Assembly: GCA_025210805.1 (NCBI GenBank)
Contig: JAOAQX010000011.1
Coordinates: 673-64,672 of the forward strand
DNA length: 64,000 nucleotides
Direction: 5' to 3'
Source of the DNA: Flavobacteriales bacterium
GTDB lineage: Bacteria > Bacteroidota > Bacteroidia > Flavobacteriales > CAJXXR01
Shown: positions 23,783 through 38,811 of the stretch, piece after piece
Numbering within the stretch: the first letter of the stretch is position 1
How the letters are laid out: each line of letters begins with the position of its first letter
Notes under the pieces: generated by a model
Seen by the model: the letters and a program-made list of their open reading frames with translations, nothing else
What the model was told of the DNA's origin: nothing
The model's database searches: none
Position numbers and translations under genes: made by a program

Positions 23783-24464
23783 TTTATCATTAATTCTTCT
23801 TCTTTTGAGTATAGCAATTCACAATTCCTACGCTCAAATAACACCGGATTCGCTTTTGGGTGTTTATGTTGGGAAGTACTATAATAATCATAATGCTAAT
23901 TCTGACAATTGGTATATCGTTTCTGAGAATTGGACTGTACCCATCAAGGATTTAGATACACTAAATTGTCTTTCAAATAAAAGCATCACTCCATCTGGGA
24001 GTCAGCCATTTGTTTTCACTACTCCTTATGATTTTTGTAATTCAGATTTTGAGTATCAAGAAAACAATCCCGACTACTATAGATTTAATAGATTTTACGG
24101 AAAAGACAGTCTATGGGGCAATAATGAATTCATTCCAGGTCCACCACCTACAGGAACTCCATATTCCACAAGATTTATCGGGAAAAAGATGTATGAAATA
24201 GGAACAACAGAGCTGGAAAACATGCTTGCTATTCAAGTATATCCTAACCCAGCCAAAGAACTACTCAATATCCGTACAGAAGAAGATATACAGGCGGTGG
24301 ATATTCATATCTTTAATAGCAGAGGGCAAAGAGTGAAAACTTTTATAGAAAAGTACCATAAAAACTGGCTACAGGTAGATGTTTTAGATCTTCCCAAAGG
24401 AATTTATTATATCAAAATAACTTCCTTTGGAAGGGTATTTCATCAGAAATTTATTAAGATATGA
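23772..24464 (+). CDS. secreted T9SS-CTD protein, tandem paralog 1
   Basis: Signal peptide, variable middle, and a C-terminal block (…QVYPNPAKELLNIRTEEDIQAVDIHIFNSRGQRVKTFIEKYHKNWLQVDVLDLPKGIYYIKITSFGRVFHQKFIKI) with a T9SS type A CTD pattern. The stop overlaps the next start (ATGA). Confidence 0.65.
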   Translation: MKTNLSLILLLLSIAIHNSYAQITPDSLLGVYVGKYYNNHNANSDNWYIVSENWTVPIKDLDTLNCLSNKSITPSGSQPFVFTTPYDFCNSDFEYQENNPDYYRFNRFYGKDSLWGNNEFIPGPPPTGTPYSTRFIGKKMYEIGTTELENMLAIQVYPNPAKELLNIRTEEDIQAVDIHIFNSRGQRVKTFIEKYHKNWLQVDVLDLPKGIYYIKITSFGRVFHQKFIKI

Positions 24465-25150
24465 AACATATTTTTTTAATCCTTCTTCTTTTGAGTATAG
24501 CAATTCACGATTCCTACGCTCAAATAACACCGGATTCGCTTTTGGGTGTTTATGTTGGGGATCGTTTCAAAAAAACCAATGCCTATTCAAATGAATGGCT
24601 TCTGACTTCTAAGAATTGGGTAGTCACAGTGGACAAATTGGACACTACAACCTGTATTATTAGTGAAACCGTTACCCCTTGGGGTAATGCTACAATATAT
24701 CTTTATACATCTTATGATTTTTGCTTTGCAGATTTTAATTATCAAGAAAATGACCCCAACTATTATAAGTTTAGTTGGTTTTATGGAAAAGACAGTCTTT
24801 GGGCTAATAATGAATTCATTCCAGGCCCTCCTCCAAGTGGAACCCCATACTCTTTAAGATTTATCGGGAAAAAGATGTACGAAATAGGAACAACAGAGTT
24901 GGAAAATATGCTCGCTATTCAAGTATATCCTAACCCAGCCAAAGAACTGCTCAATATCCGTACAGAAGAAAACCTAGAGGCGATGGATATTCATATCTTT
25001 AATAGCAGAGGGCAAAGAGTGAAAACTTTTATAGAAAAGTACCATAAAAACTGGCTACAGGTAGATGTATTGGACCTACCCAAAGGGATCTATTATATCA
25101 AAATAGCTTCCTTTGGAAGGGTTTTTCATCAGAAATTTATTAAAATATGA
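24461..25150 (+). CDS. secreted T9SS-CTD protein, tandem paralog 2
   Basis: Near-identical first ~35 codons and last ~100 codons to 23772..24464, with a diverged middle. The ATGA overlap with the next ORF is also present. Confidence 0.65.
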   Translation: MKHIFLILLLLSIAIHDSYAQITPDSLLGVYVGDRFKKTNAYSNEWLLTSKNWVVTVDKLDTTTCIISETVTPWGNATIYLYTSYDFCFADFNYQENDPNYYKFSWFYGKDSLWANNEFIPGPPPSGTPYSLRFIGKKMYEIGTTELENMLAIQVYPNPAKELLNIRTEENLEAMDIHIFNSRGQRVKTFIEKYHKNWLQVDVLDLPKGIYYIKIASFGRVFHQKFIKI

Positions 25151-27383: not shown

Positions 27384-27443
27384 GTTGTAGAACATCCCCC
27401 TTCAAAGCCCTTCAAAGGGGGCTTACAATAGTACTCTACAAAC
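27384..27443. terminator. nested hairpin between convergent genes (putative bidirectional terminator)
   Basis: Inner stem CCCCCTT…AAGGGGG (27396-27421) with duplicated CCTTCAAAG in the loop. Outer stem TTGTAGA…TCTACAA. Confidence 0.3.
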
Positions 27444-28086
27444 CTTTCATCAAAGCTTCCAAACGTTTTACTCGTTCTTCCAAACTTTCCTCTGCCACTT
27501 CGGCTTGCTCCTGAGCTATAGATATACTCAAAACAGCATTTATATAAACGGCATCATCTCTTAGTTCTTTCGAAAAAGTCAATTCATCTTCCGCATTTAA
27601 ATACAAACAAGCCGTGCTATCATCGTTCTGATGATAAGTACAAAAAAGCCAATCTCCAGACTGAAACTGCCCGAGAGAAGCTTCTAGCTTCAAAACAAAA
27701 TCAAAAGGAAAATGAGCAAAAGGGAAAACCATTTTTTTAGATTGCTCGATGCTCTCCTGCCAATCCGAAATGGAAATTCCATGTAATAAATTGGAAAAAA
27801 GCACGGGGGCTTCATTCTCTACCGAAATGGAAGATAGTCCATGCACCAATAAATCGTCGGTAATATTGGACAACTGATTAATAGTTACTTCCTGTGTCAA
27901 CAAAATATCGATAGAAATGCCAAAATGATTAGCAATACGTATCACCGTATCAATTTTCGGCATCGAACGATCTTCCTCATAAGCACCCAAAGTAGGTCTT
28001 TTGAGGTCAAAAAGCTCGGCAAAAGCCAATTGACTAAGATTTTTGGCCTTTCTAATTTTCTTTATGTTCTTACCAAAAGTTGACAT
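27436..28086 (-). CDS. XRE-family helix-turn-helix transcriptional regulator
   Basis: N-terminal HTH_3 pattern (IKKIRKAKNLSQLAFAELFDLKRPTLGAYEEDRSMPKIDTVIRIANHFGISIDILL). Confidence 0.7.
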   Translation of the reverse strand: MSTFGKNIKKIRKAKNLSQLAFAELFDLKRPTLGAYEEDRSMPKIDTVIRIANHFGISIDILLTQEVTINQLSNITDDLLVHGLSSISVENEAPVLFSNLLHGISISDWQESIEQSKKMVFPFAHFPFDFVLKLEASLGQFQSGDWLFCTYHQNDDSTACLYLNAEDELTFSKELRDDAVYINAVLSISIAQEQAEVAEESLEERVKRLEALMKGL

Positions 28087-28243: not shown

Positions 28244-28564
28244 ATGATACTTACTACGACTCCTTCTATTGAAGGTAAACACATTGTACAATACCATGGG
28301 ATAGTGACGGGCGAAACCATCATTGGAGCCAATATATTCAAAGATTTCTTCGCCTCGATCCGAGATGTAGTTGGAGGAAGAAGCGGCTCTTATGAAAAAG
28401 TTTTGAGAGAAGCAAAAGACACTGCACTCAAAGAAATGGAAGAATTGGCAAGACAATTAGGTGCCAATGCTGTAGTGGGTATAGACCTCGACTACGAAAC
28501 TGTTGGAAATGGTGGTGGAATGCTGATGGTCACGGCAAGTGGAACAGCCGTTTCTATAAGATAA
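28244..28564 (+). CDS. YbjQ/UPF0145 family protein
   Basis: 106 aa. [13 protein letters not shown]…[14 protein letters not shown] is characteristic of YbjQ. Confidence 0.8.
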
Positions 28565-29035: not shown

Positions 29036-29437
29036 ATGAAAAGCAATAGCTTCTTAAAAGTAAAAAATTACCTCCTTGATTTGAAATACGATATTTCTTA
29101 TCAAAATGAAAAAGATGGAATTCTGATGATACAGAATGAACCAGAGGGAATCAAAAATCTGCTCATAGGATTAGCAGATCCTATTTTGATTATGGAACAA
29201 TACCTCTGTACCATTCCTAGCCCTACGGCAGAAATCTATTCAGAATTGCTCAAAAAAAACCGAGACATGGTACATGGCGCCTTCGTGTTGGATGAATCTA
29301 AAACGAAGCTGATTTTTAGAGATACACTTCAGTTAGAAAATTTGGATCAAAACGAACTCGAAGCCTCCATCAACTCATTAAGTCTCCTACTAAGCGAGTA
29401 TTCCAATGAGATACTCAAGTATTCATCAAAAAAATAA
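29036..29437 (+). CDS. hypothetical soluble protein (possibly YbjN-like), first gene of the PspA-flotillin module
   Basis: 133 aa with no TM segment, 7 nt upstream of pspA. Confidence 0.5.
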   Translation: MKSNSFLKVKNYLLDLKYDISYQNEKDGILMIQNEPEGIKNLLIGLADPILIMEQYLCTIPSPTAEIYSELLKKNRDMVHGAFVLDESKTKLIFRDTLQLENLDQNELEASINSLSLLLSEYSNEILKYSSKK

Positions 29438-29443
29438 AAGATT

Positions 29444-30154
29444 ATGAATTTTTTTAAACGACTTTTCAAAATCGGGCAAGCAGAAGCCAACTCTGCCGTT
29501 GATAAAATGGAAGACCCGATAAAAATGACGGAACAAGGTATCCGTGATATGAAAGAAGAATTGGCAAAAAGCCTAGAAGCTCTTGCTGAAGTAAAAGCTA
29601 CGACAATAAGAGCCCATAAGGACTACGAAAGTTACCTTGCCAAAGCCGAGGAATACCAAACCAAAGCCTTACTCCTGCTCAAAAAAGCACAACAAGGCGA
29701 AATGGAAATGGCTGAAGCCGAAAATTTGGCTACTCAATCCTTAGTAAAAAAGGAACAGCAAACAGAACATGCCGAAGGTGCCAAAACAGAACATACCAAA
29801 CTTTCGCAATCTGTTTCTAATTTGGAAGGAAATATCAGCGAGCTAAGAAGCACCATCGAAAAATGGGAAAATGAACTCAAAACGCTTAAAGCTCGTGTAA
29901 AAGTAAGTAGTGCAACCAAAAAAATCAACAAAGAAATGGCAAGAATCGATCAAGATTCTACTGTTGAAATGTTAGAACGCATGAAAGAAAAAGTAGCTCA
30001 GGAAGAAGCCATGGCAGAAGCTTATGGTGACATTGCCGAAAAAGGAAAATCGATTGATAAAAAAATTGATAAAGCCATTGATACGCAAAAAGAATCGGCA
30101 AAAACTGAACTAGAAAAACTAAAAGATCAGTTAGGAATGACGGAAAATGAATAA
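29444..30154 (+). CDS. pspA: PspA/IM30 (Vipp1) family protein
   Basis: N-terminus MNFFKRLFKIGQAEANSAVDKMEDPIKMTEQGIRDMKEEL matches the PspA/IM30 start (FxRL…DKxEDPxKMxxQxIRDM). The whole 236 aa are a predicted coiled coil. Confidence 0.85.
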   Translation: MNFFKRLFKIGQAEANSAVDKMEDPIKMTEQGIRDMKEELAKSLEALAEVKATTIRAHKDYESYLAKAEEYQTKALLLLKKAQQGEMEMAEAENLATQSLVKKEQQTEHAEGAKTEHTKLSQSVSNLEGNISELRSTIEKWENELKTLKARVKVSSATKKINKEMARIDQDSTVEMLERMKEKVAQEEAMAEAYGDIAEKGKSIDKKIDKAIDTQKESAKTELEKLKDQLGMTENE

Positions 30155-30212
30155 GTTTACTGTTCAATAGTAAATTTTCCACAAAACAATACCTTAAAAC
30201 AAAGTAATAAAG

Positions 30213-30929
30213 ATGATCGATATTTTATTCTCCCCAGTCAATATGACGCTCACCATTTTACTGATAATTCTAATTTTATATTGGGTGATCTCTATGCTTA
30301 CGGGAACGGACTGGGATGTGGATGTAGATATCGACGTTGACGTAGATATTGATATAGATATTGATGCCGATATTAATCATCAAATTCCCACACAAGATTT
30401 TGAGTTTGGAGAACTTTCCAATACTGAGATTAACAAGGAAGATATTTTGTCCAAAAGACTTCCCAGAAAGCTCAAATGGTGGCAAATAGTACTCATTCAT
30501 TTCAATTTTGTGGGACTTCCTTTTATGTTCACTTTTACCTGTTGGATTTTCTTCTGGTGGTTTACCACGCTTTTATCCACCTATATCACGGGGAGTTATG
30601 ACAATTCCTTTGGATTCATTCTTTTCTTTATTCTGTTGATTCCTTCTTTGTATCTCACAAAATTGTTCACCATTCCTTTTAAAGCATTTTTTAAAAACAT
30701 CAACAAAGATGGTGACCAAGCCATCAATTTTGAAGGTAGGCTTGGACATATCAAATCGAGTATTTCGGGAGAAAAACTCGGCACGGCAGAACTCATCATT
30801 GAAGGCAACCCTTATATATTGAATGTAAAAGCATTCGAAGGACAGAAGATTGAATACGGACAACAAATTTTGGTCATTATTCAAGATTCCTCCAAAACTT
30901 TTTATTTAGTAAAACCATATTCCAATTAA
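30213..30929 (+). CDS. NfeD-like/YqiJ-like membrane protein with acidic (DV/DI)n repeat
   Basis: TM helices, a DWDVDVDIDVDVDIDIDIDADINH repeat, and a C-terminal OB-fold-like segment (GRLGHIKSSISGEKLGTAELIIEGNPYILNVKAFEGQKIEYGQQILVI) typical of NfeD partners of SPFH proteins. Confidence 0.6.
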   Translation: MIDILFSPVNMTLTILLIILILYWVISMLTGTDWDVDVDIDVDVDIDIDIDADINHQIPTQDFEFGELSNTEINKEDILSKRLPRKLKWWQIVLIHFNFVGLPFMFTFTCWIFFWWFTTLLSTYITGSYDNSFGFILFFILLIPSLYLTKLFTIPFKAFFKNINKDGDQAINFEGRLGHIKSSISGEKLGTAELIIEGNPYILNVKAFEGQKIEYGQQILVIIQDSSKTFYLVKPYSN

Positions 30930-30950
30930 TTAAACCTTAAAAATAACACT

Positions 30951-33050
30951 ATGACAGATGAAATTTTATCCATTGTAGGAATAGGAGTAGGAGTCATACT
31001 CTTTTTGGTGATTGTATATTTCGCCATTATCGCCATGTTCTACCGAAAAATCCCACAAGGAAAAGCCTTGGTGAGAACAGGTTTCGGGGGAACCAAAGTA
31101 GCTACGGACAAAGGACTTTATGTAGTTCCCGTATTCCACAAAGTAGAAATCATGGATATTTCGGTAAAAAAGATTGATATCGAACGTATTTCGTCGGATG
31201 GTCTTTTGTGTAAAGACAACCTGAGAGCGGATATCAAAGTAGCCTTTTTTGTAAGAGTAAACAATGAAGTGGAGCATATCAAAAAGGTAGCTCAAACCAT
31301 TGGGTGTACCCGTGCCTCAAGCCATGCTACTTTAGAAGCACTTTTTGAAGCCAAGTTCTCGGAAGCCTTAAAAACAGTAGGAAAAAAATTCGATTTTATT
31401 GAACTTTACGAAGCTCGTAGAGAGTTTAGAGACGAAATTATCAATATTATCGGAACCGATCTAAATGGATATATTTTAGATGATTGTGCCATCGATTATT
31501 TAGAACAAACTTCTATCGGACATCTAAAACCTGATAATATTTTGGATGCCGAGGGAATCAAAAAGATTACCGAGTTAACGGCTATTCAAAACAAAAAAGC
31601 CAATTTGATCAAAAGAGATGAAGAAAAAGTCATCCGCAAGCAAGATGTTGAAGCTCGTGAAGCTATTTTGGAACTCGACAAACAACTGGCTGAAAAAGAA
31701 GAACAACAGGCTCGTGAAATTGCCAATATTAAAGCTAGAGAACAAGCTGAAATAGACAAGGTAGCTTCAGAAGAAAGGCTTAAAGCAGAAAATGCTCGAA
31801 TTGCATCGGATGAGAAAATTGCTATTGCCGAAGAAAACAAAGATCGCCAAATCATTGTAGCTCAAAAAAACAAAGAACGTACAGACGCTGTCGAGACCGA
31901 AAGAGTGGAAAAAGACCGTGCTTTGGAAGCTACCGAAAGAGAACGCATAGTTACACTCGCTCAGATCGAGAAGGAAAAAGTAGTGGAAGTAGAAAAGAAA
32001 AATATCCAAGACGTAATCCGAGATCGTGTGGCGCTTGAAAAAGGAGTTGTAGAAGAACAAGAAAACATCAAAGACCTGGAAGCTTTTAAGGAAGCCGAAA
32101 GAGAAAAACAAGTAGCGATTACCCATGCAGAAAAAGCTGCCGAGGAAAATATGATTCAGCAAATAAAAGTAGCTGAGGCCGAAAAAGAAGCTTCGAAACA
32201 AAAAGCAGAACAACTGCAAATAGAAGCTCAGGCACAAAAAGATGCTGCCGTAAAAGAAGCAGATGCCCGTAAAACCATTGCCGAAGCGAGAGCCAAAGAA
32301 GAAGCTGCCATTGGTATTTCGGAAGCTCAAGTAATGCATGCCAAAGCAGAAGCCAGCGAAAGACAAGGATTTGTGGAAGCCAATGTAACAGAAAAACAAG
32401 CCTTAGCGGAAGCTATCGGAATTAAAGCCAAAGCCGATGCACTCAAGGAACAAGGTCTTGCAGAAGCAGAAGTGATTCGTCAAAAAGGAGAATCGGAGGC
32501 CGATATCATCAAACAAAAAGCCTTTGCAGAAGCCGTAGGAATAGACGAAAAAGCAGAAGCCATGAAGAAATTTGATGGTGTAGGTAGAGAACACGAAGAA
32601 TTTAAACTGAAACTGGATAAAGAACTTCAAGTGGACTTGGCACAAATTAATATTCAAAAAGAAATTGCTGATGCACAAGCTATGGTAATTGCCGAAGCCC
32701 TAAAAGCTGCTAATATTGATATTGTAGGTGGAGAGACCATGTTCTTTGACCAGATTATCGGGCAAGTAACTAGAGCCAAAGGATTCGATCGTTTGGTAGC
32801 ACATTCTGAAACCGTAACCGATGTAAAAGACGCTATTTTAGGTTCTGATGACGTAAAAGGAAATCTTTTAGAAAAAGTACGAGATATGGCAATCAAATAC
32901 GGAGTCTCTTCAGAAGATCTTAAAAACCTAAGTATTGCCCAGCTTATTTTTAAACTGCAAAGCGAAGCTTCTTCTGATGAAAAACAAGGAATCAGTGGAT
33001 TATTAGGATTAGCGAAAGCTTTAGGTTTGGACCAAAATAAATTGTCCTAA
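30951..33050 (+). CDS. flotillin family protein (SPFH/band-7 domain plus long E/A/K-rich coiled coil)
   Basis: N-terminal TM, SPFH core (…GFGGTKVATDKGLYVVPVFHKVEIMDISVKKIDIER…), then ~400 aa of EA-repeat coiled coil as in YqiK/FloT. Confidence 0.85.
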   Translation: MTDEILSIVGIGVGVILFLVIVYFAIIAMFYRKIPQGKALVRTGFGGTKVATDKGLYVVPVFHKVEIMDISVKKIDIERISSDGLLCKDNLRADIKVAFFVRVNNEVEHIKKVAQTIGCTRASSHATLEALFEAKFSEALKTVGKKFDFIELYEARREFRDEIINIIGTDLNGYILDDCAIDYLEQTSIGHLKPDNILDAEGIKKITELTAIQNKKANLIKRDEEKVIRKQDVEAREAILELDKQLAEKEEQQAREIANIKAREQAEIDKVASEERLKAENARIASDEKIAIAEENKDRQIIVAQKNKERTDAVETERVEKDRALEATERERIVTLAQIEKEKVVEVEKKNIQDVIRDRVALEKGVVEEQENIKDLEAFKEAEREKQVAITHAEKAAEENMIQQIKVAEAEKEASKQKAEQLQIEAQAQKDAAVKEADARKTIAEARAKEEAAIGISEAQVMHAKAEASERQGFVEANVTEKQALAEAIGIKAKADALKEQGLAEAEVIRQKGESEADIIKQKAFAEAVGIDEKAEAMKKFDGVGREHEEFKLKLDKELQVDLAQINIQKEIADAQAMVIAEALKAANIDIVGGETMFFDQIIGQVTRAKGFDRLVAHSETVTDVKDAILGSDDVKGNLLEKVRDMAIKYGVSSEDLKNLSIAQLIFKLQSEASSDEKQGISGLLGLAKALGLDQNKLS

Positions 33051-33098
33051 GCAAGAGAAATAGTTTAGTTTTTTCAACAAAATGGAGTTGTACCAAAA

Positions 33099-33539
33099 GT
33101 GATACATTGCTTTTGGTACACAAAACTCCTATCAGGAATTTTATCAATAAAAAGGATGTTTACTATCATCATATACAGCATATTGTCAGGATTATTTTCC
33201 TATTTTCTCTATATGCTTTTTAGCTCCAAGAATATTGGATGGAATGCAGATACTCTGCTCCCCATCTTAATTATGAGTGCGGTAAGCGTTTTGATGATCA
33301 GCCTTTTGTTTTCACAAGAATACCTACTTACAGATCAAACTTCTACCGAAACTAAAAAGCCCGTATTTATGGAGCGCATTGATTCTATTTCGTATATAAG
33401 TTCGAAAAAAGATTCAGCACTTCTCCCAACAGATTCCACTATTTCGGAAGCTTATCATCCGTCTTTTGACAAGCTCTTTATCACTCCAAGACGAGCCCAT
33501 TTTTTTACACAAGAAATCATCAAAAGTCAGATTAAATAA
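33099..33539 (+). CDS. small predicted membrane protein (uncertain)
   Basis: 146-aa ORF filling the flotillin-giant gap, with two hydrophobic helices. The annotated start lies inside a 10-bp-stem hairpin (33094-33123), so the real start may be the internal Met. Confidence 0.3.
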   Translation: MIHCFWYTKLLSGILSIKRMFTIIIYSILSGLFSYFLYMLFSSKNIGWNADTLLPILIMSAVSVLMISLLFSQEYLLTDQTSTETKKPVFMERIDSISYISSKKDSALLPTDSTISEAYHPSFDKLFITPRRAHFFTQEIIKSQIK

Positions 33540-33569
33540 ACCTACCCCACACTAGAAATACAATAATAT

Positions 33570-36500
33570 ATGAGCCTAGAAACTGGTACATACGAAATCA
33601 TACAAGGAAGATTAGAAAAGCAAAAAAAAGATCTATTAGAAAGACTGGAAAAGCTCAATAATTCCAGAAAAGAAGTCTTTGGTGCTGTAGATCTAAAAAT
33701 TATTGCCAATAAAAGGATCAATACGGATAATAATTGTATTGCTCGAGATATTATTTCTTTTGGAAATACCTGTCTTTTGGGGTATAATGTACATATAGGT
33801 CTGCGATCGCAAATTAAACTTTCCGATGTTTTTTCTGCCTACCAATTTGAGAATGGAAATTTTAAAGCCATTGATTTAACACTCATTAATGATGAGGCTT
33901 TTATTAATGATTTCGAGAACCTATACAAATACTATCGAGATACTATTTTTGCTCGTTTTGCCATTATTGGGAATTATGTCCACATGGTTTTTCAGATTTC
34001 GGATAAAATTCATGATATAAAAACCTTCAAATGGCTCTTGAATGACAATCAATTGCGTTATATCGATAATCGATCTGATTTTGAATATGGTTTTCCAAAC
34101 CAACATGAATTTGAATGGAAAAAACCAGTAAGAGAAATGCACCGATACGGTACACATGCCCATGTTTCTATTCTAGATAAAGTATTTGTAGAAACCATTG
34201 GTGGCGATCTTACGATAAAGATAGAAGACAATACCGACATTGGACAAGGGATCTTTTCGGAACCTGTAGAATTTCAAGATCAAACCCTAGATGATGCCGA
34301 GTATTTCTATGCAGATTTAGGTAATCTGATTATCCTAAAAATTAAACCCTACCAAGAAGATTTTCGATATTTTGTGTATAACCACAAAGTACAAGAAGTC
34401 TATAAAATAGACAGCATCAAAGATGCAACTGTTTTGCTTCCCGAAAATCAAGGAATTTTATTTCCAAACGGTTATTATCTTCAAACTGGAACTTACAAAC
34501 TCTTTGAAAAAAGCATTGAGCAGGTTAAGTTCTTAAAACGACTTGCAGCTCCCAATGGAGAGGATTTTATCTTTGTATTCTACGAAGAAGCCAAAGGGGA
34601 TTTTGTTTTGATATTTTATAATATTATCGATCAAGAAATAAAAACACCCATTATTTGCAACGGATACACCGTTTTTCCCGATGGAGAACTTTCTTATTTT
34701 AAAGCCGAAGAAGACGCTACCAAACACCATGTAATCCAAATTTGGCAAACGCCATTTACCAAGAAAACACTCGTTCAATCGGAACATTCAGATCGTTTGA
34801 TTTATAAAATTGGGAATAAAGACCTTGTAAAAGCCATGGCAGAAAGTAGGGAACTCATTGGCTTGCTCAATAAAGAGGATTCTTACGATGGGCTTTATGA
34901 TGATATTGCCAAGCTTTCTGGAGATATAGTTGATTCCTACTATTGGATACATGAGCCCGAAACCGCACAATTATCGGTTCCTTTATCAGAAATTCAAAAC
35001 ACGGCAAATACTGCCATAGACGAGTTTGAAAAAGTCATTCAACTCAAAAAACAGGCAAAAGAAAAAACCGACGCACTTTCTCAAGAAGCCAAACAACTTT
35101 TTGATGAAATAAAACACGCACGTTTTCAAGATATTCAGGAATTCGTGGAAGTTTTAGCTAATCTGAGATTACTCAGAGGAAATACAATTGGACTCAAAGA
35201 TATTCGCTACACCGAAAATGCCTTTATTGAAGCGCTAGAAAACGAAATCGTTGAAAAAACAGGACATATTTCTACTCGCTGTGTAGATTTCTTGATGAAT
35301 GCGGAAGCCTTGCTTCCTTACACCCAAGCCGTAAAAGAAAAAGAGGCAAATATTGAAGCCGTCAAAAAAGTAATTGATGGGAAAAAGCTTCACGAAGAAT
35401 TGGAAAAAATTAGTGCAGATCTAGAACTTCTCATTGATATTGTGAATAATTTGGAAATTGAAGATACGGCACATTCTACGCAAATAATAGATGGTATTTC
35501 GGTCATTTTTGCGGAACTCAACCGTGTAAAAGCCTCCTTAAAAAGAAGACTTTCTAATCTTGGGACTGCCGAAGCTCAAGCAGATTTTACGGCACAAATA
35601 AAACTTTTTGATCAGTCTGTGCTCAATGCTTTGGATCTTTCACAAACACCCGAAAAATGTGATGAATACCTCACTAAACTATCAGTTCAACTAGAAGAAA
35701 TAGAAGGGAAATTTGCCGAATATGACGAATTTGTCAACCATATTTTAGAAAAAAGAGAAGAAATTTATTCGGCATTCGAAACCCGAAAAAATGCCTTAAT
35801 TGAAAAACGCAACAAAAGATCTCTGACACTTTCCAACTCGGCAGATAGAATCTTGAAAGGCGTACGTAAGAAGGCCCAAACCTTTAGAACTGCCGAAGAA
35901 ATACACGCTTACTTTGCTGCCGATATTATGGTTGCCAAAATCCATGATATCATCCAAAACCTCAACGATCTGGAAGATTCTGGAAAAGCAGAACAAATTG
36001 CTTCCAAATTAAAGATAAGCAAAGAAGAAAGTCTCAGAAAACTTAAAGATAAACTAGAATTATACGAAGAAGGTGATCATATCATCCGTTTTGGAAATCA
36101 TCGTTTTGGGGTGAATCAACAACCGTTAGATTTAAGTATTGTAGAGCAAGATCACCAACTATTTTTTCATCTTTCTGGTTCAGACTTTTATGAGCAGGTG
36201 AAAGACGAAAATATCCGAAATCACCAATCTCTTTGGAATGCGGAATATGTTTCGGAAAACACACATGTTTACCGCAGTGAGTATTTAGCTTTTCAAATGC
36301 TAAAAAAATATACTTCGGAACAATTACTCAAACCAGATTTTCTAAAAAAAATCATCAAAGAATATACTTCAAAACACTATACCGAAGGATATACCAAAGG
36401 TGTGCACGATAGTGATGCCGAAACTTTAGTAACTGCCTTAGCGCAGATTCAACAGAGTATGGGATTGTTAAAATTCTCTCCTGAAATAAGAGGTAAAGCC

Positions 36501-38384
36501 TTATGGTTTTGGAAGAGTTTGAATCCTCAAAAACATCAAAGTTGGCAAGAAAAAATATCCGCTGCTCAGCAAGTGCTCCAACTGTTCCCAAAATCGGAAA
36601 ATTTCACTTTTCTAATTGATGAGCTAGAAGAAGCTGTAGCTCATTTCTATTCTGACTGGAAAGGATGGAAAACAACAGAGAACCGAACCATTGCCTTATA
36701 TCTTTTTGAGGAGTTTCAAAAAGAAGACTCAATCATAATCAGCCGAAAGGCAGAAAAAATCTATCAAGAATTTATAGCGCATCTCCAAAACAATCAAGCA
36801 AAAAGCACTTTTACTAAGCGTATAGAAAAGATGGAAAACTTGGAAGAGAAAGTTGCCTACTGCCAATATTGGTTATCGGCTTTCATACAAAATAGCCAAG
36901 ACCCAGATACACTCTTCTATATTTATGAAATTATCGCTCTAATTCTCTTCGATTTTTCTTCATTTACCCATGTCAATACAACTGAAACGCTAAAAGAAAT
37001 TGCTCTCATTGGAGCACATCCTTCGATAAAAAACGGGAGCTACACCTTAAATTATCATAGCTTCTTTGACAAACTCACCCGTTTTGAACAAGAATATATT
37101 CCGCAGTTTTTAGCTTTTAAAAATGCTAAACAAACCCTTTTACAAGAGAAAAAAGCGAGTTTAAAACTAAATGAATTTAAACCCAAAGTTTTGGCTTCGT
37201 TTGTTAGAAATAAACTTATAGACCAAGTATATCTTCCACTTTTTGGGAGCAATCTTGCCAAACAACTAGGTACCGTTGGCGACAACAAAAGAGTGGATCG
37301 GATGGGAATGCTCTTACTCATCTCTCCGCCTGGATACGGAAAAACGACCCTGATGGAATATATTGCCAACCGTATGGGGATGACTTTTATGAAAATAAAC
37401 GGACCCGCCATTGGGCATGAAGTTACTTCAGTGGATCCAATGTCTGCCAACAACTCGGCCGCCAGAGAAGAGCTCAAAAAACTTAATCTCGCCTTTGAAA
37501 TGGGAAATAATGTGATGCTTTACCTAGACGATATTCAGCATTGCAACCCAGAATTTTTACAAAAATTTATTTCCCTTGCCGACGGACAAAGAAAAATAGA
37601 AGGAGTCTATAATGGTCAACCTAAGACTTATGATTTTAGGGAGAAAAAATTCTGTATCATCATGGCAGGAAATCCTTATACCGAAAGTGGAGAAAAATTT
37701 CAAATTCCCGATATGCTCACCAACCGATCAGACATTTATAATCTGGGAGACATTATCGGAGAATCGGCACAGTTGTTTGAACTAAGTATGGTAGAAAATG
37801 CTTTGAGCTCAAATACTATTCTAAGGAATCTGAGTACACAAAGCATGGACGATCTGTACGAAATCATCCATTTTATTGAAGGAAACAAACAAGGAACCTT
37901 AAACCTAAAGGGCAACCACAGTAAGAGTGATATAGAAACCTATGTAGCTACCTTAGAAAAACTATTGAAGATAAGAGATATTGTTCTCCAAGTAAACAAA
38001 ACCTATATCGAATCGGCTTCTATGGATGATGCTTACCGTACCGAACCTTCTTTTAAACTCCAAGGGTCTTACCGAGACATGAATAAACTAGCCGAGAAAA
38101 TACTCCCCATCATGAATGCTAAAGAATTAGAAATATTAGTCAATACGCATTATGAAAATGAATCTCAAACTTTAACCTCTGCCTCAGAAGCCAATTTATT
38201 AAAGTATAAAGAACTCACGAAACAACTCACAGAAGATGAAATAGAAAGGTGGAAAAGCATCAAGCAAACGTTTAAAGAAAATCAATCGACTCAATCGGAT
38301 AGTTATATGCAATCACTTTTGGAAGAATTGGCAAAATTGACCGATGGTTTAGATGGGATAAAAGGTGTGCTGGGAAAAAGATAA
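33570..38384 (+). CDS. 1604-aa protein with C-terminal AAA+ ATPase domain of the AAA_5 (MoxR/dynein/McrB-like) class; N-terminal ~1250 aa of unknown function
   Basis: Walker A LLISPPGYGKTTLMEY (nt 37332-37349 encode GYGKTT). Walker B VMLYLDDIQH. Sensor-1 region FCIIMAGNPYTESGEKFQIPDMLTNRSDIY matches the MoxR-type pattern. Long predicted coiled-coil stretches in the middle. Uninterrupted ORF. Confidence 0.8.
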   Translation: MSLETGTYEIIQGRLEKQKKDLLERLEKLNNSRKEVFGAVDLKIIANKRINTDNNCIARDIISFGNTCLLGYNVHIGLRSQIKLSDVFSAYQFENGNFKAIDLTLINDEAFINDFENLYKYYRDTIFARFAIIGNYVHMVFQISDKIHDIKTFKWLLNDNQLRYIDNRSDFEYGFPNQHEFEWKKPVREMHRYGTHAHVSILDKVFVETIGGDLTIKIEDNTDIGQGIFSEPVEFQDQTLDDAEYFYADLGNLIILKIKPYQEDFRYFVYNHKVQEVYKIDSIKDATVLLPENQGILFPNGYYLQTGTYKLFEKSIEQVKFLKRLAAPNGEDFIFVFYEEAKGDFVLIFYNIIDQEIKTPIICNGYTVFPDGELSYFKAEEDATKHHVIQIWQTPFTKKTLVQSEHSDRLIYKIGNKDLVKAMAESRELIGLLNKEDSYDGLYDDIAKLSGDIVDSYYWIHEPETAQLSVPLSEIQNTANTAIDEFEKVIQLKKQAKEKTDALSQEAKQLFDEIKHARFQDIQEFVEVLANLRLLRGNTIGLKDIRYTENAFIEALENEIVEKTGHISTRCVDFLMNAEALLPYTQAVKEKEANIEAVKKVIDGKKLHEELEKISADLELLIDIVNNLEIEDTAHSTQIIDGISVIFAELNRVKASLKRRLSNLGTAEAQADFTAQIKLFDQSVLNALDLSQTPEKCDEYLTKLSVQLEEIEGKFAEYDEFVNHILEKREEIYSAFETRKNALIEKRNKRSLTLSNSADRILKGVRKKAQTFRTAEEIHAYFAADIMVAKIHDIIQNLNDLEDSGKAEQIASKLKISKEESLRKLKDKLELYEEGDHIIRFGNHRFGVNQQPLDLSIVEQDHQLFFHLSGSDFYEQVKDENIRNHQSLWNAEYVSENTHVYRSEYLAFQMLKKYTSEQLLKPDFLKKIIKEYTSKHYTEGYTKGVHDSDAETLVTALAQIQQSMGLLKFSPEIRGKALWFWKSLNPQKHQSWQEKISAAQQVLQLFPKSENFTFLIDELEEAVAHFYSDWKGWKTTENRTIALYLFEEFQKEDSIIISRKAEKIYQEFIAHLQNNQAKSTFTKRIEKMENLEEKVAYCQYWLSAFIQNSQDPDTLFYIYEIIALILFDFSSFTHVNTTETLKEIALIGAHPSIKNGSYTLNYHSFFDKLTRFEQEYIPQFLAFKNAKQTLLQEKKASLKLNEFKPKVLASFVRNKLIDQVYLPLFGSNLAKQLGTVGDNKRVDRMGMLLLISPPGYGKTTLMEYIANRMGMTFMKINGPAIGHEVTSVDPMSANNSAAREELKKLNLAFEMGNNVMLYLDDIQHCNPEFLQKFISLADGQRKIEGVYNGQPKTYDFREKKFCIIMAGNPYTESGEKFQIPDMLTNRSDIYNLGDIIGESAQLFELSMVENALSSNTILRNLSTQSMDDLYEIIHFIEGNKQGTLNLKGNHSKSDIETYVATLEKLLKIRDIVLQVNKTYIESASMDDAYRTEPSFKLQGSYRDMNKLAEKILPIMNAKELEILVNTHYENESQTLTSASEANLLKYKELTKQLTEDEIERWKSIKQTFKENQSTQSDSYMQSLLEELAKLTDGLDGIKGVLGKR

Positions 38385-38419
38385 TTCCTAAACAAGCAAT
38401 GTTTTCAGAAAGATAAATT

Positions 38420-38427
38420 TATTTTTG
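38420..38427 (+). promoter_or_regulatory. Bacteroidetes-type -7 promoter element (TAnnTTTG) for rnpB
   Basis: TATTTTTG lies 4-6 nt upstream of the predicted RNase P RNA 5' end. Confidence 0.35.
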
Positions 38428-38430
38428 CAC

Positions 38431-38792
38431 CACACGGGAAGGTTATCGCTTTTTGGCTTTGAGCCAAAAAGAGGAAAGTCCGGACTGCACAGAGCACCAT
38501 ACTTCCTAACGGGAAGGCTTCAGGAAACTGGAGACAGCTAGTGTTACAGAAAACAACCGCCAATTCTGTTGGTAAGGGTGAAAAGGTGAGGTAAGAGCTC
38601 ACCAGTGCATTATGCAAATAGTGTAGCTGAACAAACCTTATGGGCAGAAAGATCATGTAAACCGAAGCTTTGTAGCAATACAAAAAAAGTCTGCTCGGCT
38701 GATTCGGAGGGTAGATCGATGGATTCCAAAAGTGATTTTGGAACTAGAGAAATGATAATCTAGATACAGAATCCGGCTTATTACCCGTGTAT
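38431..38792 (+). ncRNA. rnpB: RNase P RNA (bacterial type A)
   Basis: Universally conserved P4 strand GAGGAAAGTCCGGACT at 38481-38496 and the complementary-strand element ACAGAATCCGGCTTA at 38766-38780. A P1 helix forms between ACACGGG (38433-38439) and CCCGTGT (38784-38790) and is followed by a T-run. Length ~360 nt. Confidence 0.85.
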
Positions 38793-38811
38793 TTTTTATA
38801 AACAAAGACAA

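Follow-up and report, generated by a model that had tools for sequence, protein, structure and literature searches.

A DUF3686–DUF7902–AAA+ ATPase encoded with flotillin and PspA in a Flavobacteriales genome: a candidate remodeller of membrane scaffolds

Background

The closest described relative of the locus analysed here is an operon reported by Ravi et al. 2024 (mSystems; PMC11237479) under the designation "beta-propeller + coiled-coil + AAA+ ATPase", with Dokdonia donghaensis (PspA ANH61663.1) as an example. In that operon, genes for a CesT/Tir protein, PspA, a three-transmembrane (3TM) protein named YqiJ-YuaF, a Band-7/flotillin protein and the ATPase follow one another, an element written "<-cHTH+Protease" stands at the HTH position in Dokdonia, and a role in ATP-dependent, chaperone-like membrane dynamics is proposed. 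The description does not assign the AAA+ module to a clade and includes neither a structure nor an experiment.

Bacterial flotillins and PspA/Vipp1 proteins are under intense structural study, yet their assembly cycle has no known driving ATPase. A 2025 review treats a Vps4-like ATPase as seemingly missing from bacteria (PMC7619361), and PspA of B. subtilis is reported to require an SPFH protein for membrane localisation (PMC8581546). Literature searches found no experimental work on any member of the DUF3686/PF12458 family to which the ATPase belongs, and searches on SPFH with MoxR, or on flotillin with AAA+ and PspA, found no experimental study. The name "DNA repair ATPase" is unsupported in the present analysis and is spreading to thousands of proteins.

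Gene neighbourhood

The window analysed in the present work is a stretch of 64,000 nucleotides from contig JAOAQX010000011.1 of a Flavobacteriales bacterium, and the locus within it is an orthologue of the operon already known from comparative genomics, not a new kind of system. As an initial reading of the sequence by itself had stated, a protein of 1604 amino acids is encoded on the plus strand by a single ATG-to-stop open reading frame (33570..38384); its translation is 100% identical to a deposited MAG protein, and its Dokdonia orthologues are 57-58% identical to it along their full length. The protein has no convincing transmembrane (TM) segment and is soluble. Its gene is the last of a co-oriented string, with gaps of 6-58 nt between genes, that occupies one strand from 29036 to 38384 and reproduces the gene order of the published operon, including the divergent HTH gene, as well as the domain architecture of its ATPase.

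The string begins with a CesT/Tir-like (YbjN-like) chaperone-fold protein of 133 aa (29036..29437, plus strand; PF22550, E 7.6e-53) and continues on the same strand with a 236-aa PspA/IM30 protein of the bacterial ESCRT-III superfamily (29444..30154; PF04012, E 8.9e-43), a 238-aa YqiJ/YuaF (NfeD-like) protein with three TM segments and an acidic D-V/D-I repeat loop (30213..30929), a 699-aa flotillin/YqiK-family SPFH protein with a TM segment at aa 8-26, an SPFH domain and a long coiled coil (30951..33050), and a small bPH_4-related protein with two TM segments (2TM; 146-aa ORF, 33099..33539). Relative to the published operon, the window adds this last gene, between flotillin and ATPase, and an upstream YbjQ gene. 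The position after flotillin that had been ascribed to the ATPase is correct in that a flotillin-family gene lies upstream, and the 2TM ORF separates the two.

The 2TM protein, whose true start is likely Met20 (nt 33156), matches by BLASTP genes with a bPH_4 annotation that occupy the corresponding position in loci L094 (E 3e-21) and L093 (E 9e-12); its gene is a variable insert between flotillin and ATPase and is missing in more distant loci. Neither the flotillin nor the 3TM protein was identified directly in searches of Pfam and of PDB sequences, and their probable identities are drawn from close homologues, which for flotillin are named "flotillin family protein/YqiK" and in some cases, at 75-79% identity, match PF01145, from a weak match of aa 172-223 of the 3TM protein to YuaF 2k14 (E 0.44, not significant alone), and from Ravi et al. 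2024. Because the flotillin has one N-terminal TM segment followed by basic residues, its bulk should be cytoplasmic by the positive-inside rule. A conserved C-terminal tail was sought in it as a ligand for the propeller described below, and the tail proved to be less conserved than any other part of the flotillin.

On the minus strand, an XRE-type HTH protein (27436..28086; 216-aa ORF, of which 215 aa were scanned; HTH_3, E 6.8e-14) is divergently encoded and is a candidate regulator of the string; homologues occupy the same divergent position at 25 other loci. A YbjQ gene lies upstream of the string, and housekeeping genes (RNase P RNA, YceG/MltG, M23 peptidase) adjoin it, the RNase P RNA beginning 45 nt past the ATPase stop codon.

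The ATPase gene is almost never found apart from the flotillin gene. Synteny was counted in loci that were obtained by a metagenome search with an alignment as the query and that had enough upstream DNA; a search of genome contigs with the single protein gave 7 loci only. A flotillin gene lies upstream on the same strand in 62/63 related loci and the 3TM gene in 61/63, and among the 51 loci with enough upstream DNA for the more distant positions, PspA is present in 27 and CesT or DUF2170 in 26, gammaproteobacterial loci having DUF2170 (YjfI) in place of the CesT-like gene. At one locus, L076, the ATPase adjoins two-component genes and has no flotillin gene. The same gene order recurs in Granulosicoccaceae, Teredinibacter, Wenyingzhuangia, P. 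fluorescens pQBR103, Deinococcus and Streptomyces. The conserved neighbours of the ATPase are all membrane or membrane-stress proteins.

These neighbourhoods bear on the suggestion, made initially from the size and single-ATPase architecture of the protein, that it resembles large defence ATPases and that its homologues might be enriched in defence islands. An anti-phage or conflict-system ATPase, such as a membrane-acting abortive-infection module, would be compatible with a large protein bearing a single ATPase and with the few megaplasmid copies (pQBR103, Hymenobacter, Deinococcus, Streptomyces), and PADLOC does give weak matches to mad8 (E 1.9e-4) and IetA (E 3.8e-3), confined to the P-loop region. 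However, none of the six proteins of the string has a significant PADLOC match (four of the five neighbours have none at all, and PspA has a weak coiled-coil match to JetC, E 9.5e-4), no copies were found in phage, and 13 of 72,556 plasmid records carry the ATPase, several of them chromosome-sized. The neighbours are moreover housekeeping genes, and gene order and full-length conservation are stable across four phyla, whereas defence islands are patchy and variable. The defence suggestion is consequently considered very improbable, and was rejected on the PADLOC, phage and neighbourhood results.

Family and N-terminal architecture

The 1604-aa protein is a true member of a widespread bacterial family that combines DUF3686, DUF7902 and a MoxR-like AAA+ module: DUF3686 is matched end to end, DUF7902 lies in the helical region, and there is a single C-terminal AAA+ module. 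A search at E<=1e-5 returned 4481 homologues, the best 120 of which are full length, with 100% query coverage and the same Pfam set, and a search seeded with a gammaproteobacterial homologue returned 5032 matches; homologues are found across Bacteroidota, Pseudomonadota, Actinomycetota and Deinococcota. The sequence-only reading had called the first ~1250 aa unrecognisable, which is contradicted by the Pfam matches to DUF3686 (aa 21-458) and DUF7902 (aa 579-661), and by the N-terminal 1200 aa, which align in one stretch to 399 cluster representatives at E<=1e-30. Its nomination of the protein as the prime candidate for a novel function survives in part, since the function has no experimental basis in the literature, but the operon had already been described by Ravi et al. 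2024 and the domains are in Pfam. Searches of PDB sequences, whether started from the single protein or from a 53-sequence profile, gave no match for the N-terminal 1240 aa; the only matches were of ~40 residues around the P-loop, to p97, VAT, Rix7 and RuvB.

The NCBI name of the homologues, "DNA repair ATPase", agrees with the Pfam label of PF12458, "ATPase involved in DNA repair", and these two names, together with the weak P-loop-only matches to RuvB, are what speaks for a DNA repair ATPase. The RuvB matches, however, span ~45 residues around Walker A and are equalled by those to classical AAA proteins; DNA-binding, nuclease and SMC/Rad50-type domains are absent from the Pfam and sequence searches, in which neither SMC_N nor AAA_23 is matched; the conserved neighbours are membrane-associated; and literature searches found no paper tying the family to repair. 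The name probably derives from coiled-coil similarity to SbcC-type COGs. A repair enzyme was rejected, given the single C-terminal AAA+ module in place of ABC-type heads split by a coiled coil and the membrane-protein neighbours, and a repair function is regarded as almost certainly wrong.

The DUF3686 domain (33630..34943; PF12458, E 1.5e-175, profile positions 1-448 of 448) is a divergent beta-propeller. In the AF2 model, an N-terminal helix (aa 2-37) precedes ~26 strands over aa 43-393, with pLDDT mostly 80-92, and the best Foldseek matches in the PDB are beta-propellers, headed by the DCAF1 WDR domain (E 1.5e-5, TM 0.41) and including Elp1, IFT-A, prolyl oligopeptidase and Vps18. The most conserved patch of the propeller, judged by column conservation in 81 full-length homologues, covers aa 194-242 (34149..34295), where G194, H198, F206, E208, G212, T215, K217, E219, N221, G225, G227, V233, Q238 and D242 are invariant; this conservation makes the patch a candidate partner-binding surface. 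The propeller is followed by a region of long helices arranged in antiparallel spectrin-like bundles (aa 469-830, 34974..36059; AF2 model), in agreement with the long coiled coils that had been predicted at roughly aa 470-800, and DUF7902 lies inside it (35304..35552; PF25472, E 3.6e-25). A small beta domain, recognised from AF2 secondary structure and conservation (aa 838-876, 36081..36197), has the invariant residues G842, F846, H867 and G870, and a second helical domain is modelled at aa 902-1127 (36273..36950). The least conserved part of the ATPase starts at about aa 960, mean column conservation being 0.29-0.42 over aa 961-1200. All of these features are on the plus strand.

AAA+ module

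The alpha/beta core of the AAA+ module (37305..37754, plus strand) contains Walker A GYGKTT (aa 1255-1260, nt 37332-37349), Walker B LYLDDI (aa 1317-1322, nt 37518-37535), a pre-sensor-1 beta hairpin that the AF2 model places between alpha3 and beta4 (model strands 212-217 and 220-225; aa 1342-1355, nt 37593-37634) and, within nt 37662-37727, sensor-1 N1368 (AGNPY) and a putative arginine finger, R1386 (QIPDMLTNR). A lid and a helical C-terminal extension, delimited by the model and by conservation, follow on the same strand (37755..38381), and the extension carries an invariant YRTEPSFKLQGSYRxM motif (aa 1489-1504, nt 38034-38081) in which R1490 and R1502 are putative sensor-2 arginines. The four motifs from Walker A to QIPDMLTNR are exactly those first read from the sequence. 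They cannot be put down to chance, since 81 full-length homologues with 39-60% identity to the window protein retain these motifs with at least 98% invariance. The AAA_5 assignment made at the same time is likewise borne out: the Pfam AAA_5 profile is matched nearly end to end (E 1.3e-8) and the pre-sensor-1 hairpin is modelled. The closest structural neighbours of the module are MoxR-type modules, and a position on the MoxR/AAA_5 side of the AAA+ superfamily is supported. The C-terminal part is modelled with moderate quality (pLDDT 76.6), and at the site of the helix-2 insert expected of the MoxR clade, 18 highly conserved residues between beta2 and alpha2 are modelled as a loop and a short helix, with no hairpin. 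No VWA/MIDAS partner was found in the gene string or among the gene clusters common to at least six loci; apart from the HTH regulator and the partners already known, no non-shadow gene cluster occurs in that many loci.

The Walker B motif is an invariant hhhhDD instead of DE, which hints at slow or partner-stimulated hydrolysis; a "DD" Walker B is also found in DnaA. This motif, the ~360 aa taken up by spectrin-like bundles, and the lack, as far as the residues can be read, of an obvious aromatic pore-loop motif between beta2 and alpha2 would fit an ATP-regulated tether or switch, in which the propeller and the spectrin-like arm join a flotillin cage to another structure and nucleotide sets oligomerisation only. 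Against such a tether, invariance extends to sensor 1, to the arginine finger and to the candidate sensor-2 arginines, suggesting that hydrolysis is important, and the MoxR relatives are active chaperone-like ATPases. A tether is accordingly judged quite unlikely.

Proposed function

The gene order suggests, as the most likely role and at about even odds (a probability of roughly 0.5), that the protein is a cytoplasmic, membrane-proximal, ATP-driven remodeller of flotillin and PspA assemblies. The ATPase would be a subunit of a conserved module on the cytoplasmic face of the membrane, together with the YqiJ/NfeD-like 3TM protein and flotillin, and this module would be extended here, as in about half of related loci, by the CesT-like protein and PspA. 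The ATPase may oligomerise through its AAA+ module, as MoxR proteins do, and may dock on a cytoplasmic flotillin/NfeD cage by means of its propeller and helical arm; ATP binding and hydrolysis would then cause the scaffold, with recruited PspA polymers, to be assembled, opened or disassembled during envelope stress. It would thus be a chaperone-like remodeller, and a functional analogue, from a different AAA+ clade, of Vps4 acting on ESCRT-III. Counting against the remodeller model are the absence of a VWA/MIDAS partner, the L076 locus that has no flotillin, the helix-2 insert modelled as a loop, and the moderate quality of the C-terminal model.

An alternative assignment of the substrate is that the protein is a dedicated disassembly ATPase for PspA, and hence a bacterial Vps4, with PspA as its direct substrate and flotillin as a mere platform. 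The tightly spaced, co-oriented string that PspA and the ATPase share, here and in 27/51 loci, favours this assignment, as do the apparent vacancy of the Vps4-like role in bacteria and the known binding of PspA to the AAA+ domain of PspF (both in PMC7619361); it is nevertheless rather unlikely. The fullest version of the remodeller model, in which a MoxR-clade ring with propeller and spectrin-like arms opens, closes or recycles cytoplasmic flotillin cages and PspA polymers and is an independently evolved counterpart of Vps4, is tentative and more likely wrong than right. If it is true, the ATP-driven engine that bacterial membrane-scaffold dynamics has so far lacked would be this family. A large, highly conserved family that is almost always linked to a flotillin gene is a concrete and testable candidate for a Vps4-like role.

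Comparison with known systems

The present work adds to the description by Ravi et al. 2024 the placement of the AAA module with the MoxR type. MoxR-family proteins such as CbbQ, NorQ and RavA are stand-alone proteins of ~300 aa that are paired with VWA/MIDAS partners, whereas the window ATPase, which is only 14-15% identical to them, has ~1240 extra N-terminal residues, no VWA partner and a DD Walker B. Midasin and dynein have six concatenated AAA modules per chain where the window ATPase has one, so that the resemblance to them noted in the sequence-only reading is confined to the individual AAA module; a multi-module motor of the dynein or midasin type was rejected, one AAA module being present in Pfam and in the models.

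Pairs of the FtsH-HflK/C type are similar in that an AAA+ machine is associated with an SPFH-family scaffold, often with an NfeD protein, but FtsH, a classical AAA protease anchored in the membrane, is enclosed in a periplasm-facing HflK/C cage, while the window ATPase is soluble and has no protease domain, and a cytoplasmic orientation is predicted for its flotillin. Membership of the Vps4 family itself was rejected, neither an N-terminal MIT domain nor a classical-clade best match for the AAA module having been found. The likeness to Vps4/CdvC lies instead in the genetic coupling of an AAA+ ATPase to a protein of the ESCRT-III superfamily, here PspA, and in the similar role that is proposed, the remodelling of membrane-bound polymers.

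Family membership and domain architecture

The ATPase encoded at 33570..38384 (+) is, by sequence comparison, an orthologue of a family already in Pfam and NCBI. In Pfam, aa 21-458 cover the entire DUF3686 profile (PF12458, E 1.5e-175), aa 579-661 hit DUF7902 (PF25472, E 3.6e-25), and hits to AAA_5 (E 1.3e-8) and AAA (E 1.5e-7) lie at the C-terminus, so the sequence-only reading was mistaken in treating the N-terminus as unrecognisable. A search of 5.8 billion proteins produced 4481 matches at E<=1e-5 among 8000 scored candidates; the best 120 of the 4481 are all 1604-1654 aa long with a Pfam set identical to that of the window protein, and one match, from a Flavobacteriales MAG and named “DNA repair ATPase”, is 100% identical to it. 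A second search seeded with a gammaproteobacterial homologue added 5032 matches with the architecture unchanged. When aa 1-1200 alone served as the query and 1.84 billion cluster representatives were scanned exhaustively with HMMER, 399 clusters passed a threshold of E<=1e-30 and 883 passed E<=1e-10, and full-length members typically aligned in one stretch from approximately residue 3 to 1199, which indicates that these 1200 residues are one conserved unit and not filler. Named members occur in Streptacidiphilus (Actinomycetota), Vibrio and Aureibacter, and tblastn located further copies in Deinococcus, Streptomyces, Proteus, Halomonas and P. fluorescens pQBR103.

The name “DNA repair ATPase” agrees with the Pfam description, and no supporting evidence for it was found. 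A repair function was rejected because the window protein has no DNA-binding, nuclease or SMC-type domain; RuvB matches are limited to some 45 residues at and around the P-loop. Such a role is scarcely credible, and the present analysis adds new evidence that the label is unfounded.

Catalytic motifs and predicted structure

The reading frame begins with ATG and runs uninterrupted for 1604 aa, and the motifs lie exactly where the sequence-only reading had placed them: GYGKTT at aa 1255-1260 (nt 37332-37349), LYLDDI at aa 1317-1322 (nt 37518-37535), and AGNPY (sensor-1 N1368) followed by QIPDMLTNR, which contains R1386. In an alignment of 81 full-length homologues which were recovered from public contigs and share 39-60% identity with the window protein, the blocks SPPGYGKTT, DDIQH, MAGNPYTE, IPDML.NR.D.YNLG and R.EP.F.LQGSYR.M are at least 98% invariant, so the site is real and strongly selected. 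Walker B is DD instead of DE. The Walker B of DnaA resembles this invariant DD, which by analogy suggests slow or partner-stimulated hydrolysis; the same feature speaks for a nucleotide-gated tether or switch, a role that we consider quite unlikely.

Two AlphaFold2 models were built from a 53-sequence alignment in which Bacteroidota and Gammaproteobacteria were mixed. The N-terminal model (aa 1-1150, pLDDT 82.1) contains an N-terminal helix (aa 2-37), approximately 26 beta strands (aa 43-393), long helices (aa 410-830), a small beta domain (aa 838-876) and a helical domain (aa 902-1127). Three points call for caution: the helix-2 insert of the AAA+ module has no hairpin in its model, Walker B departs from DE as described above, and PDB sequence searches gave matches confined to the P-loop region. 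The protein is soluble and combines a single intact AAA+ module of the MoxR clade with a large N-terminal part made of propeller and helices; both the structural placement in the MoxR clade and the domain boundaries are new predictions from the models. A dynein- or midasin-like motor, the comparison drawn earlier, was rejected because there is a single AAA module. Conservation in the N-terminal region peaks in the propeller at aa 194-242, where fourteen residues are invariant, and this patch is a plausible candidate for a partner-binding surface.

The gene string

The string comprises six closely packed, co-oriented genes, with the ATPase gene at the 3' end and 6, 58, 21, 48 and 30 nt between successive genes. 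The first encodes a CesT_Tir_1 protein (E 7.6e-53) and the second PspA/IM30 (E 8.9e-43). The third (30213-30929, +) encodes a 238-aa 3TM protein which matches YuaF weakly (E 0.44) and sits at the YqiJ/YuaF position of the operon of Ravi et al.; the first loop of this YqiJ/NfeD-like protein (aa 33-60) carries an unusual acidic dipeptide repeat, DWDVDVDIDVDVDIDIDIDADI, that might bind cations or PspA/flotillin. The fourth product (699 aa, a single N-terminal TM and a long coiled coil) has close homologues named flotillin family/YqiK, some of which match Pfam Band_7. The fifth (33099-33539, +) is a 146-aa 2TM frame. In the closest relatives this position is taken by genes annotated bPH_4, to which the frame is homologous (E 3e-21 and 9e-12); on this sequence evidence it encodes a divergent member of the bPH_4 (bacterial PH domain) proteins, with its true start probably at Met20 (nt 33156). 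This flotillin-ATPase slot is variable: two closely related loci (L093, L094) have one bPH_4 gene and other small ORFs, Wenyingzhuangia (L008) has Biotin_lipoyl-like, DUF2059 and DUF2339 genes, and in most distant loci it is empty.

A bacterial class A RNase P RNA (38430-38796, +; RF00010, 260 bits, E 1.9e-84) begins 45 nt 3' of the ATPase stop codon, so the string ends there, and the 92-aa ORF at 38405-38683 (-), which overlaps it, is spurious. Upstream, a divergent XRE-type HTH gene (27436-28086, -), with HTH_3 at aa 7-61 and approximately 140 further residues without a Pfam match, recurs at this place in a further 25 loci; it may be a regulator dedicated to the string, and its Dokdonia equivalent was labelled “cHTH+Protease” by Ravi et al. 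(PMC11237479). A YbjQ_1 (PF01906) gene (28244-28564, +) lies just 5' of the CesT-like gene, also adjoins CesT/PspA in four related loci (L011, L016, L084, L094), and may be an occasional extra member. Farther out, an ORF at 24461-25150 (+) carries Por_Secre_tail, the T9SS C-terminal sorting domain (E 7.5e-15), which together with the identical MAG protein is consistent with a Bacteroidota (Flavobacteriales) origin of the window.

Synteny across related loci

HMMs made from the window genes were used to search 90 related loci (7 from genomes, 80 from metagenomes and 3 from exact look-ups). Where more than 3.2 kb lies upstream of the ATPase gene, a flotillin gene is found upstream on the same strand in 62 of 63 loci and the 3TM gene in 61 of 63; where more than 5.2 kb is available, PspA is present in 27/51 and a CesT-like or DUF2170 (YjfI) gene in 26/51. 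The 3TM-flotillin-ATPase triad is also annotated in P. fluorescens pQBR103, Deinococcus and Streptomyces, and taken together these data identify the triad as the invariant core and CesT-PspA as a frequent add-on. That the constant partner is flotillin, not PspA, is new with this quantification. The sole exception of the 63, L076 (4111-9657), has neither flotillin nor 3TM gene; its ATPase has a PAS/response-regulator histidine kinase on one side and a LuxR-type response regulator on the other, and a giant multihaem cytochrome and genes for cytochrome c biogenesis are close by.

In Wenyingzhuangia (L008 12805-20818) a polyamine-linked PspA-type operon (DUF4178, DUF350, spermine synthase, AdoMet decarboxylase, ion channel) lies directly 3' of the ATPase gene, and in pQBR103 (L092 1-4110) the genes ahead of the flotillin-ATPase pair encode PspA, DUF2491, DUF350, DUF1190 and glutathionylspermidine synthase; a single locus can thus fuse the three PspA operon classes of Ravi et al.

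The suggestion of a large defence ATPase fared poorly. It was rejected on several grounds: none of the six genes has a significant PADLOC match, no phage copies of the ATPase were found, copies occur in only 13 of 72,556 plasmid records, several of them chromosome-sized, and the neighbours are housekeeping genes, all of which makes a defence role very improbable.

Proposed mechanism and relation to known systems

The ATPase gene is almost obligately linked to flotillin and NfeD-like genes, and links to PspA and CesT are frequent. The positive-inside rule predicts that the bulk of flotillin and the C-terminus of the 3TM protein face the cytoplasm, which would bring all partners together with the ATPase in one compartment. 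The most parsimonious model, to which we assign a probability of roughly one half, is that the ATPase is an oligomeric MoxR-like AAA+ remodeller whose propeller and arm would dock on a flotillin/NfeD cage and which would use ATP to assemble, open or recycle the cage and the PspA polymers recruited there. The linkage to flotillin (62/63) far exceeds that to PspA (27/51), and we therefore prefer flotillin over PspA as its main partner. A PspA-specific, Vps4-like role is possible but unlikely. According to a 2025 review of bacterial ESCRT-III systems (PMC7619361), bacteria appear to lack a Vps4-like ATPase.

In the literature searched, neither a mention of DUF3686 or PF12458 nor an experimental study was found. 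What the family as a whole does, our preferred reading being a remodeller of the flotillin/NfeD cage and PspA, is a question of real interest for work on flotillins and PspA and can be tested directly. The window protein itself is a member of a known Pfam/NCBI family in a published operon and not a new kind: exactly this operon was described by Ravi et al. (2024, PMC11237479), who reported a wider distribution for shortened versions that lack PspA and proposed an ATP-dependent, chaperone-like role in membrane dynamics. The example in their Table S3 is Dokdonia donghaensis, and orthologues from Dokdonia share 57-58% identity with the window protein.
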